Assembly (NCBI GenBank): GCA_013115125.1
Contig: JABANN010000025.1
Span: forward strand, 1 to 64,000
Direction of reading: 5' to 3'
DNA: 64,000 nucleotides
Origin: Perkinsus olseni
Taxonomy: Eukaryota
Shown: piece after piece, positions 8,807 through 14,354 of the stretch
How the letters are laid out: each line of letters starts with the position of its first letter
Position numbering within the stretch: the stretch's first letter is position 1
Position numbers and translations under genes: made by a program
The notes under the pieces: model-generated
Database searches by the model: none
Seen by the model: only the letters and a program-made list of their open reading frames with translations
Told to the model about the DNA's origin: nothing

Positions 8807-9566
8807 TGTAAAGTGTTATCAAGTACTGAACTGTAAAGCACATGACATCCGGCCCCACCTCCGATCAAACATCTTTCGAGTTACAACTTGCAACGCCAGC
8901 CTCGCTCGCCCAACCGTTTCGCATTATTCGAGTGGCGCTCGCCCGAAGAATCCATCGTCGCGCTCGCCCTGGGCGCCTGTCGCTGGCGGTCCGTGCACGG
9001 GCCGCTCAAACGACCAACGCTAGACATCCGGTGATCCACGCCTCCATTGCCGTGATTCAGAGTTACATAGGCTTTGGGCTTCTGCTCCGGTAATCGTTTT
9101 CACAGCTGTGCGGTATAAGTTGTGCATAGAACATCTTTGTTGAGCACTCCTAGAAGTTCACGGGCAACTCCGTTGAAGTCCTTTCACCGGGCCAGAACGG
9201 TAGTGTCGACAATTGGGCAGTTTTATCTTAGCTACAATATTTTGAGTTTGAGTTGACGTGCACGGTGCGCTTTTATACTTCACAAAGGTTCTCTATCACC
9301 AATCTGTGAATCAGATCTGTTCAACCTCTCATTCGATTAAGAAAGTTTGTGTATACCTTGAAACCGGGAGTTTGAAGCTCCCCAACTCGCTGTTCGATCG
9401 ACAACTGCTTGTTATCGTCCCATCTAGAAATAGCAGTACCCGCCTGTAAGGGGTCTACTGTCGGCTTTTCGTCGCATTTCATGGGTTCGCATCTCGGACG
9501 CGCGGAGGGTATTCGTTATAGGGTACAGTCACGTGCTACTACGATAGTTTATATTGCATTCTTGCA

Positions 9567-12500
9567 ATGCCTGTCAACTCTCCTGCTACTGCTAGCATGC
9601 TGACCGGTGAAATCGCCGCGCCTGAGAATCAGAAGGTAGTGAAGGGAATGGAATACAAGTCTTGTAACAGTCCATAATTTTCGCCGTCCTGGCACACATG
9701 CCGGAGTTAGGTCATCGCAGATGGTGTCGGCTTCGATGATGGGAGTTCTCCGCGAGCGGATCCCGGATGTGCCCCGATCGTATGCCTCGAGGTGCTCGAG
9801 AATGAGGTAGGGTACCATGTTGACGCTTCTTATCACTTCTCGTGGGACAGAGCAGCTCGGCGCACTGGCTGATAACGAGTTGTTGGTTTTCGCTGCATTC
9901 ACGCTGCCTTCGCGTTATTCAGCTAACGCGTGTGCTGCATAATCGAGCTGACTCTAACCGTCTTGAGAAGGCCAAAAAGGTGCTGGAAAGATATAAGGGC
10001 AATGACTGGGTAGAGATTAGTCCACGAGAATGGCGGCCGTCATGTGGTCACGCGTGGCAGATTATTCATCAATCCTGTCCGAGCCAGCACGGTTTCCATG
10101 TTTGCGGGTATTCTAGGGTTAAAGTCAGGCACAGAACGGATCTATTTCAGTTACTGGTAGTTACCTGTGGCGGGATGTCGTGGAACATACCGTAACTTTC
10201 GTTACTCAGGTGCTCACTTGGTCGCCAAGATCAAGGAGCCCGATTCATAATCATCCATGCGAGAGGTGCTTTCTAATGCCGCTCCAGGTGATAACACGGC
10301 AGGATGCTTTACAGTTTACCCTTTATTCTAGGGTGATCTCCACGAGGAACGGTATGAAGTTGAGGAGGAGGGACCAACGGGTTTGAGTCATAAACTTATT
10401 GAGAGAACCCCAATACCTATAAGGTTCGTAGCAGCTTCCACTCTCTGCAAAAATCTATTCTCGCCCCTGTAGGACGGCTGCGTGGATCGATAACAGTTTG
10501 GGTTGGCACGCGATTGAGAACTCAGGCGACGGGTTGGGCGTATCGTTGCACTGCTATGTAGTAGCGTCTTGCTGTTTAGTCACGGAGTTACCCGGGGCTG
10601 TACTTAGATTCCGGCATACAGTCAATGTAAAATCATCGACACCATGTCGAAGGAAATACGCAGCGTTGCTTGCCTGCCCAAGGATGTCTGTGTACAGCCC
10701 CTTCATGAAGCGGTCATGGAGAGGACTCGAAAGTGGGACAACTGTGCTGCTCTCTCTCCGCAGGGCTGGCCCGGTTAGGTACATTGCCGCCCAGGAGGAC
10801 TGCTGTTCTGATGACAATCCCCCAATACCGGTGGTCTCGGTAGGTCTCAAGTCTTGGATTGGCAACTGCGATGGATGGTGAGGTCAGGCTCGGGGGAAGC
10901 AAGACATCGAGTCGGCGTTCGCCTCAGCGTCATGTCCGATCGCATTTGAGGAGGAGTGCCCACCTATGGACGACGACTGCCTCAAAAGGGCAGTTGATTT
11001 CACTTGCGATCTTTCTGTGGGATGCAATCGTTGCTGCAGTAGTGGGCAGAGGTTGTCGTCCTACAGGTTAACACGGGTCATCTATTCTTCTTCAATCAAC
11101 TCTTCGCTCGAGCAGATCCCTTGGCGGTTGCAGCGGAGGGCCTTACTGCAGCACTCAACGTTAATATGTAATACCGGCTCGGGGAAGGCCTAGGGTAAAT
11201 CTCCGTGGCTATCAGGTATACTTTCGAGATGGCACCTGTTATGTTACTGATGGAGCATAGGTTACTTCAGCATATGGCATCCTTTCTTGGATGGTACGAG
11301 CATAAAGTCGGGGATACTGGACGATCCACCCCCACTCTGGAAGGTGTGCCGCGAATTGTGCTAGCCGTAGCTAACTGAGGCCTTGGTGTTGCCTTTGGCA
11401 GATGATGGTTTGACGCTGACGAGATTGGCCTCTGGCTTGAGCGATAGGGCCACTGAACAGGTAGACTGGTGGGGCTGCCGGAAATGTGATGTACGCATGC
11501 CCTCTTCAGTTCGACGGAATGCTCCTCCCTGGTGCCTCTCATTGCAACATAACCGCACTGCATGTAGCCAGGCAGCAACTATTTCCTGATACTATCGAGG
11601 AAGGCCTCATGGGGACCTCGGCAAAGGCTGGAGGTAAAGAGATGGGTGGGGGCACCACTCCTGAGACTGGAGTCAGCTTACCTCCGTTAGGTGCTCCCAG
11701 GGGCAGGCTGATGGTATTCACTTCGGCCAACTCCCACTGCTCGATGGAGAGAGGATGCATGATGCTAGGTGGGGAGCATGCTTGCTCATGAGCCTTACGT
11801 TCTATGCCGGGCCGTACTGGAACGTTGATAGACTCCTTTGAGAGCTCATCGCCTTGGTGCTGTTAATCCACTGAATCGATCGATGATTACCAACTTTGGC
11901 AGTGATCCGTCACCAACAAGCTCGCATCTTGGGGGTACGCTCGCCTCTGAGCAGGTCTGGGCAGGAAGAGTCTTGTCTTCGTCAAGTGTGATCCTGAGAC
12001 CTGCCAGATGATCCCCGAGGAGCTCGAGAAGGCGATAAAGGCCGAGGTACAGGAAGAGACCGAGCTTCGCTCCGCTGCGATTTTGGCCTGCAGATTTTGA
12101 ACGGGAATACCCCATTCTTTGTTAATGCCACCGCTGGCAGCACAGTCGCGGGAGCCTTTGACGACTGCAATGCTCTGGCTGAGATTGCCGAGAGGTAATA
12201 CTATCACTCCTGCTAAGATGATCGGATAGGGCTCGGGTCTGAAAACCGAAGTCTTGCTCGATCCAGCCCGATTCTGTTCGGTGACTGGTCTCGGTCTTGT
12301 CTGTGCCTTCGGCTCATTGTGGCATTTAGATTAACTGGGTAATGCAACACAAAGCTCATTGTGGACTTGCTTTTCATCGGCATCAAGTCTTACTGAGCCG
12401 GCGACGGCGTTGAACTCTAAACTGACTCACACACTGATCTCTGAACGTTCTCTTGGGTCAGGTACAGATGCTGGCTGCATGTTGATGGCGCCCTCGGGGC

Positions 12501-13907
12501 CTCCTTCCTGCTTGCCAGGGGTGAGGATCCATATGATAGCCTCACACGTAAGGGGGTAGTACCGTGGGGGTGAGGGGGAGGATGGATGGTATCAGGTGGC
12601 ATGGAGAAGGCTGATTCTATCTCGTGGAACCTACACAAGCTCTTGGGAGTTCCTCTGCAATGCAGTGCCTTGCTCTGTCGACATCCCGGATGCTTGAAGG
12701 CCGCGCATGAGGAGCAACACGGCTCGGAGGTGAGGCGGCGGAGCGAAGCGAGTACGGTTTACCAATTTGGTGGATATCTCTTTGCGAATCTCTAGCATAG
12801 GAGCGATTGATCTTGGATGAGCGACCCAGGTTCGATTCCATGCTCAGGCATTCCCATGTTTGAGTCCGCTAGACACAGTGTACTGCTCATCGATGTCGGG
12901 ACGTAAGGCTGATGCTTTCAAGGCGTGGATACTGTGGAAGAAGATGGGCGACTGTGGCATGGCCAACAGGGTTAGGCTCGTGTAGGTTGCCATGTCTTTC
13001 CATGTGCTCTTCGTACCACTCCTTCCGCAACTCGTAGGTATACGCATACGCAGGAGTTCGCGGCTATGTTGAGAAGCTTCCCTGTGCGGAAGCAGTTCGA
13101 CGAGGCCCAGCAACTGTATGAGGACCCGATCATCGAGAAGGTGAGAGAGGCTGCTGCCAAACCGTAGGGTCATGCATGGCGATTCGCTTAGGGGCCGAGC
13201 GATGTGGACGGAGCCAACGACAATGCCTTTCATCTGGCATTCGAGCCAACCTCAGCATGTGAGAGCTCGAAGTGATGTTGTTGTTTCGAAGGCGAGGTTA
13301 TTGAGGTACATGCTTCTGGTGGGTGCCGTATGACCTGAGGGAGAGGTTCATGAAGGAGGGGCCCCATGCGCTGTCTAGAGAGCTCTTCACTGTCGCTTGC
13401 CGTATGCGATCGGCTTTGCTGTCTGAAGGTGAGTCGCGGTCTGCCAAGGGAAGCGTGGGAGCCCACCGAGCGAGATCGAGGGGACTGCCGTATAGTGTCA
13501 CCATCCTGTGGCCTCCTCGAGTACTCTGCATGGACACGCCTACTGTACTAGAAACGAGCTTGTGAGTGCCGGTGTCCCTTCAGGGTCTCTGATGATATCC
13601 TTCTACTCGACTGACGAGAAGCCTGCATTCTGGCGTATACCCAATATCAATCCGGAGATCTCTCACGAGCACATGTGGGCCATCCTTAAGATCGTCAACA
13701 GGTAGGGTTCATATGCTCATCGGTGGTAGTGGGAGGTGGCAGCCCTACCCTCCTCAGAGTGGGTCATTTCTGTTTCCCGCCTGGCACTAAGAAATGGGAG
13801 AAGGACCTTTGCCGGCCGGGAGAATGCGCAGTGGTGAGCTCTCCTGCGCTGGGCTTCCCTAGAAGTTGCCGGTTCTCAGCGCTCCCGCTTGTCCTCCCCG
13901 GCACTAA
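9567..13907 (+). CDS. Cysteine dioxygenase fused to a group II PLP-dependent decarboxylase (CSAD/GAD family)
   Basis: CDO part (about 9567-10730): YSRVKV..LFQLL|VLTWSPRSRSPIHNHPCERCFLMPLQ|GDLHEERY...AWIDNSLGWHAIENSGDGLGVSLHCY|IPAYSQC. Decarboxylase part (about 10780-13907): DLS|VNTGHLFFFNQLF...LNVNM|YTFEMAPVMLLME, FDGMLLPGASHCN, VFTSANSHCSMERG, PFFVNATAGSTVAGAFDD, WLHVDGALG, ADSISWNLHKLLGVPLQCS (PLP lysine), SGRKADAFKAWILWK and FWRIPNINP. Canonical GT-AG splicing joins the two parts with no stop. Confidence 0.85.
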
Positions 13908-14354
13908 ATCCAGGCAGCTGGTCAGTGCCGCCAGAATTTGACGAGCTCAAGAAGACCCGTTCGGCTGCCCAGCTGCTGGGTGGCATAGAGGGGACTGGCG
14001 AGTTCATATGATACCTTAGTTATCATCTGCCTGTTTCATCGCATTTTCACACACTATTCGTGGCCTGCCGAGTTGGCACCACTTGTATTGCTTGTGACGC
14101 TGGACTTTTTAAAGTAAGGAGGATTATTGTTATCTATGAAGCAGCATGTCATTATTGAAGTCTACTAAGAGGTAGTATATGCCTAATGATTGAATACCGA
14201 CATCGGTCTTGGTACCCTAATGAGACTGGCTGCCAGGCTCTTACGACCGTTAGTGTTGTGTTGAGTGCAATCATCATCAACGGCAGCAGATCTTCGGGCT
14301 TTGGTTATGCGGGTATGCTGGCTTGCTAGTTTTGCCTTTTCATTGCCAAATACC

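Follow-up and report, generated by a model that had tools for sequence, protein, structure and literature searches.

A Perkinsus olseni gene that joins cysteine dioxygenase to a CSAD-like decarboxylase: a probable two-step route to hypotaurine

Gene structure and transcript

We analysed a stretch of 64,000 nucleotides (nt) from the clam parasite Perkinsus olseni, positions 1 to 64,000 of the forward strand of contig JABANN010000025.1 (assembly GCA_013115125.1), referred to here as the window. On its forward strand, from 9567 to 14011, lies a gene that encodes in one frame a cysteine dioxygenase (CDO) followed by a decarboxylase dependent on pyridoxal phosphate (PLP), of the clade that includes cysteine sulfinate decarboxylase (CSAD), GADL1 and glutamate decarboxylase (GAD). 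The roles of CDO and CSAD in the pathway from cysteine to hypotaurine are textbook knowledge. The gene has 26 exons and 25 GT–AG introns of 44–267 nt (median 51), and the GT..AG rule leaves a single solution at each junction. Its coding sequence of 2574 nt runs from the ATG at 9567–9569 to the TGA at 14009–14011 without an in-frame stop. The translation agrees letter for letter with a database protein of 857 amino acids (aa) from P. olseni, P0001 in our set (NCBI KAF4656679.1), which NCBI calls “Glutamate decarboxylase 2” and UniRef “cysteine dioxygenase”. A preliminary description, made by eye from the letters, had drawn the gene from 9567 to 13907. Its start is the ATG; its end falls short, lying inside exon 13880..14011 ahead of the stop codon at 14009–14011.

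Do the two halves belong to one transcript? To answer this, we examined Logan contigs from four of the 24 public runs (12 studies) that contain part of the stretch. The whole spliced gene is present in a single contig in two studies, as record 8 of run X2 (2819 nt) and record 9 of run X3 (2727 nt). The length of the former, whose source library is on record as RNA, is the sum of 20, 2574 and 225 nt. In the depth bins, X2 begins at 9547 and X3 at 9548, with the 3' end at 14236. The number of joints reported, 25, equals the number of introns in the model; all 15 joints shown are GT..AG and match model introns. At or just past the domain boundary the RNA joints are 10557>10608, 10839>10888 and 11016>11067. 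Intron 8 (10733–10778) lies outside the joints shown and was deduced from the 60 record letters between adjoining pieces of X2 record 8. The RNA pieces of exon 8 (10608–10732) sit within contigs that extend on both sides, and only two loose ends are reported inside the gene, at 11170 and 11216 in run X8, that is, on both sides of intron 11.

Exon 8 deserves particular attention. The alignment with rat CDO runs up to residue 214, within the CDO-fold end IPAYSQCKIIDTM of this exon. Because this one exon runs from the last strand of the CDO fold into the conserved linker, there is no room for a gene boundary between the two halves. We conclude that the fusion is one gene, with one spliced RNA contig and one reading frame. 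The preliminary description had claimed as much: spliced RNA contigs do cross the domain boundary, and its hand-spliced chain, ...VSLHCY/IPAYSQ...ERTRK/YIAAQ...PVVS/ARGKQ...CDLS/VNTGHLFFFNQLF, is identical to residues 196–319 of P0001. Of the four junctions in that chain three are the RNA joints just named, while the fourth, 10732>10779, follows from the adjoining positions in X2 record 8.

An AG at 9546–9547 directly precedes the start of the mRNA. It is likely a spliced-leader acceptor, judging by its position ahead of a contig start at which no leader letters stand. Contigs of run X1 also cover intron sequence (9795–9950 and 12232–12489), at a depth below that of the spliced contig; this run includes unspliced RNA (pre-mRNA) or genomic DNA as well. 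A second database model from P. olseni (P0176, 861 aa) differs from P0001 by the addition of GKEM, which would stem from a donor 12 nt further downstream in exon 14 (11633–11645). The upstream donor is the one used in the RNA contigs of all four runs. The positions of all exons are collected in table 1.

Table 1. Extent of the mature mRNA and exons of the fusion gene in the window, with the residues and motifs that each exon carries.
Feature	Position	Strand	Content and support
Mature mRNA	9547..14236	+	20-nt 5' untranslated region, coding sequence, at least 225 nt of 3' untranslated region (RNA contigs)
Exon 1	9567..9635	+	residues 1–23; ATG; joint 9635>9711 in 4/4 runs
Exon 2	9711..9806	+	model + RNA
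Exon 3	9923..10009	+	model + RNA
Exon 4	10061..10156	+	Y101 (10109–10111) and R103 (10115–10117), CDO substrate-carboxylate binders
Exon 5	10210..10287	+	iron ligands H129 (10246–10248) and H131 (10252–10254); crosslink Cys C136 (10267–10269)
Exon 6	10332..10423	+	model + RNA
Exon 7	10473..10557	+	iron ligand H185 (10507–10509); S197-H199-Y201, Y201 at 10555–10557
Exon 8 (junction exon)	10608..10732	+	end of CDO fold IPAYSQCKIIDTM; linker and start of decarboxylase N-terminal region PLHEAVMERTRK
Exon 9	10779..10839	+	implied by 60 record letters between adjoining pieces of X2 record 8; joint 10839>10888
Exon 10	10888..11016	+	GADL1/CSAD similarity begins at residue 292 (10972–10974)
Exon 11	11067..11167	+	FFNQLF motif; F319 (11103–11105) at the place of CSAD Phe94
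Exon 12	11216..11343	+	model + RNA
Exon 13	11402..11460	+	part of ~35-aa insertion relative to animal CSAD
Exon 14	11510..11633	+	RNA joint 11633>11691 fits P0001, not the +GKEM model P0176
Exon 15	11691..11768	+	H459 (His191 equivalent, SANSHCS)
Exon 16	11955..12046	+	model + RNA
Exon 17	12094..12194	+	model + RNA
Exon 18	12462..12547	+	HVD (D542)
Exon 19	12596..12729	+	PLP lysine K577 (12637–12639); last residue E607 (12727–12729) at the place of the canonical catalytic-loop Tyr
Exon 20	12848..12981	+	rest of divergent catalytic loop AFPCLSPLDTVYCSS; GRKADAFKAW
Exon 21	13038..13140	+	model
Exon 22	13192..13258	+	model
Exon 23	13306..13428	+	model
Exon 24	13584..13701	+	R767 (Arg466 equivalent, AFWRIP)
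Exon 25	13758..13833	+	end of decarboxylase fold (NRVG); start of C-terminal extension
Exon 26	13880..14011	+	rest of C-terminal extension; TGA 14009–14011; RNA piece 13879–14236

The cysteine dioxygenase half

The Pfam family CDO_I (PF05995) matches residues 96–212 with 49.7 bits against a cut-off of 23, and residues 55–214 align to residues 14–170 of rat and mouse CDO (E about 4e-15). In the alignment with rat CDO the three-histidine iron site is in place: H129, H131 and H185 correspond to rat H86, H88 and H140. So is the carboxylate-binding pair, Y101-S-R103 of the fusion facing Y-T-R (Tyr58 and Arg60) of the rat enzyme; we take this pair to be the mark of a true CDO of the ‘Arg type’. C136 and Y201 are the predicted counterparts of the crosslink pair Cys93–Tyr157, and S197, H199 and Y201 those of the triad Ser153-His155-Tyr157. 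Eight of these nine catalytic residues, all but S197, are invariant across the nine fused proteins aligned. The CDO motifs picked out by eye in the preliminary description (YSR, IHNH, GWH, RCF and SLHCY) hold these same residues: Y101 and R103; H129 and H131; H185; C136; and S197, H199 and Y201.

The opposite order of the two steps was considered and rejected. Decarboxylation of cysteine to cysteamine might come first and dioxygenation second; against this, the dioxygenase keeps the carboxylate-binding Arg of a true CDO, and the sole PCO_ADO signal was a weak match in the P. chesapeaki homolog P0003 (E 0.048).

The decarboxylase half

Pyridoxal_deC (PF00282) scores 178.5 bits against a cut-off of 27. 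Both Pfam families are thus above threshold in the spliced protein, a check that the preliminary description had proposed. When exons were scanned one by one, decarboxylase exons scored 29.3 and 28.2 bits; the CDO exons, too short, went undetected. The NLHK and HVD motifs also proved correct, containing K577 and H540 with D542, respectively. K577, the PLP lysine, H459 and D542 stand in columns that hold K, H and D in 121–122 of 122 unfused homologs. R767 is the equivalent of CSAD Arg466, a residue that binds the alpha-carboxylate, and its column holds R in 114 of the 122. A study of CSAD lists Arg466 among the key active-site residues (bioRxiv 10.1101/2020.09.25.308866).

What is the substrate of this half? 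The best solved relatives are GAD65 (235 bits), GADL1 (233) and CSAD (229); with GAD67 the scores range from 216 to 235. An NCBIfam scan gave no match above a curated cut-off. One position in the substrate pocket is more telling. The same study gives it as Phe94 in CSAD, Ser in GAD and Tyr in GADL1 (bioRxiv 10.1101/2020.09.25.308866); the Ser of GAD accepts the longer side chain of glutamate. In the fusion F319 occupies the place of Phe94, within the very FFNQLF motif that CSAD shows in structures 6zek and 2jis. Among the 122 unfused homologs this position is Y in 57, F in 45, W in 11 and S in 4. With Phe rather than Ser in the pocket, the database name “Glutamate decarboxylase 2” is unsupported. 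Because a tyrosine of the catalytic loop, discussed below, is missing, we describe the domain as CSAD-like rather than as a CSAD.

Distribution and origin

Is the fusion peculiar to P. olseni? A search with a single decarboxylase exon returned three annotated matches among 185 candidates, all three carrying both PF05995 and PF00282: P0001 itself (857 aa), P0002 of P. marinus (766 aa) and P0003 of P. chesapeaki (837 aa). The latter two are annotated ‘glutamate decarboxylase’. Both models seem to be incomplete: P0002 stops early and has an unrelated tail, and P0003 is missing about 30 residues including the His191 region and contains what looks like unspliced sequence inserted after SLHCY.

When 1.84 billion representative proteins were scanned with HMMER, 8090 matched at E <= 0.001. 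We submitted to Pfam 27 of the best 150 matches, those with a long protein or a late-starting decarboxylase, together with four other matches. Seven of these 31 proteins combine CDO_I with Pyridoxal_deC. The named carriers are Vitrella brassicaformis (CEM18328.1), Colpodella angusta (EP00388_P005069) and Besnoitia besnoiti (BESB_015030); further carriers are metagenome proteins and a protein of 634 aa (P0100) from metagenome-assembled genomes of Flavobacteriaceae. The search for the same architecture in other alveolates that the preliminary description had proposed was thus fruitful, in P. marinus, P. chesapeaki, Vitrella, Colpodella and Besnoitia. The C-terminal extension of the P. olseni protein (residues 792–857) is confined to the alveolate fusions, with F795 and P796 of its CFPPG motif conserved.

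To place the fusions we built a quick FastTree tree of 132 decarboxylase domains, the details of which are provisional, one branch (Besnoitia) being long. All nine alveolate fusions fall into a single group (SH-like support 98), and the branching within it agrees with the organisms: Besnoitia; Vitrella with the pair Colpodella and P0005; and the pair P0160 and P0014 with the three Perkinsus proteins. The bacterial P0100 groups with an unfused decarboxylase of Flavobacteriales (SH-like support 100), and the label ‘fused’ requires two changes on the tree. This grouping indicates that the fusion was in place before perkinsids parted from apicomplexans and the relatives of the latter, and that it had a second origin in bacteria. 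That the same two enzymes have been fused twice independently argues for a functional link between them.

Not every descendant seems to have kept both halves in working order. In the Besnoitia protein (P0008, BESB_015030, 1438 aa) the PLP lysine is replaced by Ala, the His191 equivalent by Pro and the Arg466 equivalent by Ser, with the CDO residues intact; from these replacements its decarboxylase half is probably inactive.

Three further searches added nothing to the distribution. A homology search seeded with the fusion alignment found no further fusion; it missed several members of its own alignment and is uninformative on wider absence, for example in Toxoplasma or core dinoflagellates. 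In the ESM Atlas there was no cluster of at least 50 members with both domains and no match for the C-terminal extension. The gene neighbourhood of the Flavobacteriaceae fusion P0100 contained no taurine-related genes.

Another fusion appeared among the scanned proteins: four of the 31 (P0020, P0030, P0058 and P0023) have an N-terminal PALP domain (PF00291, of the cysteine synthase/CBS type) ahead of Pyridoxal_deC. The P0030 cluster comprises 22 proteins, and the contigs that carry them reach 2.2 Mb. This PALP–Pyridoxal_deC fusion could be another two-step route of sulfur amino acid metabolism.

The preliminary description had also supposed the CDO–decarboxylase fusion to be undescribed. In the literature that we consulted on these enzymes and this pathway in Perkinsus, Toxoplasma, microalgae and dinoflagellates, no paper describing it was found. 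The architecture itself is visible in public databases, where the names hide it.

Proposed reaction and its alternatives

What does the fused protein do? We hold, with moderate confidence, that this single expressed gene of P. olseni combines CDO with a decarboxylase of the CSAD/GADL1/GAD clade to carry out the conversion of cysteine to cysteine sulfinate and then to hypotaurine. In the 857-aa product an N-terminal iron-dependent CDO leads straight into the N-terminal region of a group II decarboxylase that depends on PLP. The CDO half would use O2 to oxidise L-cysteine to cysteine sulfinate, from which the decarboxylase half would then remove the alpha-carboxylate to give hypotaurine, the precursor of taurine. 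The decarboxylase half may be expected to dimerise like its relatives, and the fusion might confer a benefit such as co-regulation, proximity or channelling. The preliminary description had called the protein a bifunctional enzyme of the taurine pathway, which might channel its intermediate and might supply osmolytes or antioxidants. A complete CDO and a CSAD-type Phe pocket uphold the first of these ideas in part; the equivalent of the loop residue Tyr335 is missing, and hypotaurine remains the likely product, the missing tyrosine counting against certainty.

Why does this residue matter? According to two studies, the loop tyrosine protonates C-alpha after the loss of CO2, in CSAD as Tyr335 (bioRxiv 10.1101/2020.09.25.308866) and likewise in plant enzymes (bioRxiv 10.1101/404970). 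In our MAFFT alignment this column holds Tyr in 116 of the 122 unfused homologs, with L/I, F/Y and H/Q coming next; the other six sequences are truncated or odd.

Several observations weigh against hypotaurine synthesis, most of them at this loop. The canonical motif Y-[LI]-[FY]-[HQ] is absent from all three Perkinsus proteins. A profile of the unfused homologs sets E607 at the position of the tyrosine (HGSEAF against kaeYLF). In phmmer alignments E607 again takes its place against GAD65, while against CSAD and GADL1 the tyrosine faces a gap in the query. In dopa decarboxylase, according to one report, the mutation Y332F abolishes amine formation and yields an aldehyde (PMC7497351). Elsewhere in the protein, the near-equal scores of GAD65, GADL1 and CSAD mean that overall similarity does not pick the substrate; and the RNA contigs are compatible with minor alternative transcripts.

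Could the missing tyrosine be an artefact of splicing? The junction of exons 19 and 20 coincides exactly with the point at which it is missing. This junction is backed by RNA, the pieces 12596–12727 and 12846–12981 adjoining within contigs. Intron 19 (12730–12847), read through in frame from exon 19, gives ...STVYQFGGYLFANL and then a stop, and this read-through contains the Y-L-F of the lost loop motif. We rejected the idea of a functional splice form, since inclusion always hits the stop and the RNA contigs skip the intron. The Y-L-F of intron 19 is either chance or a relic; we treat it as chance.

If the decarboxylase half lacks its proton donor, it may perform a different reaction. With the CDO half active, the Tyr-less half would act on cysteine sulfinate by decarboxylation-dependent oxidative deamination or by abortive transamination and give sulfinoacetaldehyde, which would probably pass to acetaldehyde plus sulfite, or by oxidation to sulfoacetaldehyde. 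Rather than making hypotaurine, the protein would then serve cysteine disposal or supply a route to sulfonates. We regard this as unlikely, while recognising what speaks for it. Three methods of alignment leave the Perkinsus proteins without Tyr at the canonical position. In the profile alignment none of the other alveolate fusions has Tyr there either, Vitrella having N-L-F, but in the wider MAFFT alignment the two colpodellid-type proteins (P0006 of Colpodella and P0005) do keep a nearby Tyr, in SPYVM. The bacterial fusion P0100 keeps the canonical one (VYLYQ). Both the dopa decarboxylase mutant (PMC7497351) and plant enzymes with Phe for Tyr (bioRxiv 10.1101/404970) give aldehydes in place of amines. 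On the other hand, the catalytic loop is flexible and hard to align. A tyrosine conserved in Perkinsus, in TVY further along the loop, might stand in for the lost one, though its conservation does not extend to the other alveolate fusions; E607, the Glu at its place, might itself serve as an acid. The literature consulted contained no report of such an activity for a Tyr-less enzyme of the GAD/CSAD clade, and the fate proposed for sulfinoacetaldehyde is a matter of chemical reasoning only.

A wider version of this idea seems to us improbable. It holds that the myzozoan fusions as a whole are a distinct type of enzyme, whose Tyr-less PLP half turns cysteine sulfinate into sulfinoacetaldehyde and releases no hypotaurine.

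It is likewise doubtful that the decarboxylase half acts on glutamate or aspartate, or is catalytically dead, the fusion then serving regulation or stability. GAD65 does have the top score among the solved structures (235 bits), NCBI does name the protein for GAD, and Besnoitia, whose decarboxylase half has lost the PLP Lys, His and Arg beside an intact CDO, demonstrates that the partnership can decay. Toxoplasma makes GABA by the decarboxylase TGME49_280700, as one paper reports (PMC10776954). Against this stand the pocket, with the Phe of CSAD rather than the Ser of GAD in an identical FFNQLF motif, and the rarity of Ser there among unfused homologs (4 of 122). Moreover Perkinsus keeps K577, H459, D542 and R767, and a bacterium has independently fused the same pair of enzymes.

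Finally, the notion that gene prediction and contig assembly wrongly joined two separate genes is scarcely credible: Logan contigs can chain overlapping transcripts, but exon 10608–10732 holds the CDO-fold end and the linker in one frame without a stop, internal loose ends occur only beside intron 11 (X8), the full mRNA length stands in one contig in two studies, and the same fusion is found among transcriptome-derived proteins of Colpodella and Vitrella.

Comparison with known systems

The CDO half resembles rat CDO type 1 (PDB 2b5h), a member of the same CDO_I cupin fold family with which it shares all the catalytic residues. The animal enzyme is free-standing, at about 200 aa, whereas here CDO forms the N-terminal domain within a chain of 857 aa, with about 54 extra residues ahead of it.

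Residues 292–791 match CSAD (6zek, 2jis), GADL1 (6enz) and GAD65/67 (2okk, 3vp6) in three stretches, with 216–235 bits. With CSAD the fusion has in common the identical FFNQLF and the equivalents of the PLP Lys, His191, Asp273 and Arg466. It departs from the CSAD/GADL1/GAD enzymes in lacking the Tyr335 motif, in its shorter loop and in the CDO at its N terminus, as well as in two insertions of about 35 aa each, one after GW and one around residues 667–700, and in about 66 additional aa at the C terminus.

The orthologs from P. marinus, P. chesapeaki, Vitrella, Colpodella and Besnoitia share the domain order, and their decarboxylase halves belong to one clade; their lengths differ, from 766 to 1438 aa. 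The Flavobacteriaceae protein P0100 likewise carries a CDO domain ahead of a decarboxylase domain and keeps the CDO catalytic residues. It differs in its independent origin, its compactness, its retained loop Tyr and the lack of a C-terminal extension.

Group II decarboxylases without the proton donor of the loop include the plant and insect aromatic aldehyde synthases and the Y332F mutant of dopa decarboxylase. The plant aldehyde synthases act on aromatic substrates and have Phe for Tyr, while the fusion has Glu at the place of Tyr and belongs to a clade with acidic substrates. The insect aromatic aldehyde synthases have Asn for His.

Genomic surroundings

In the window, nothing related to sulfur was seen in the neighbourhood of the fusion gene. 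Downstream, on the same strand, a gene from about 14366 to about 17100 appears ubiquilin-like by eye, with a UBL domain at its start, STI1-like repeats and a UBA domain at its end. Its contig in run X3 has 24 loose letters before 14328 that resemble a spliced leader, and these we take to be the spliced leader of Perkinsus and dinoflagellates. These letters suggest that trans-splicing uses the AG at 14326–14327, about 90 nt past the 3' end of the fusion mRNA.

Significance

Taurine and hypotaurine are major osmolytes and antioxidants of the marine animals that Perkinsus infects. To our knowledge, the synthesis of these compounds in protists is poorly charted. A natural fusion of both enzymes of the pathway is direct genomic evidence for linked steps in these organisms, and would provide a compact, one-gene route for the production of hypotaurine. 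It also corrects a misleading database name, “Glutamate decarboxylase 2”, and places the link between CDO and the decarboxylase as far back as the ancestor that perkinsids, chromerids, colpodellids and coccidia have in common.

Should the fusions instead prove to be the Tyr-less, aldehyde-forming type, sulfinoacetaldehyde would lead to sulfite and acetaldehyde, or to sulfoacetaldehyde and isethionate. They would then constitute an O2-driven, two-step machine for cysteine disposal or sulfonate production, dating to the common ancestor of perkinsids and apicomplexans. In any event the missing catalytic tyrosine, together with the decayed decarboxylase half of Besnoitia, offers a test case for the evolution of reaction specificity in PLP-dependent decarboxylases.

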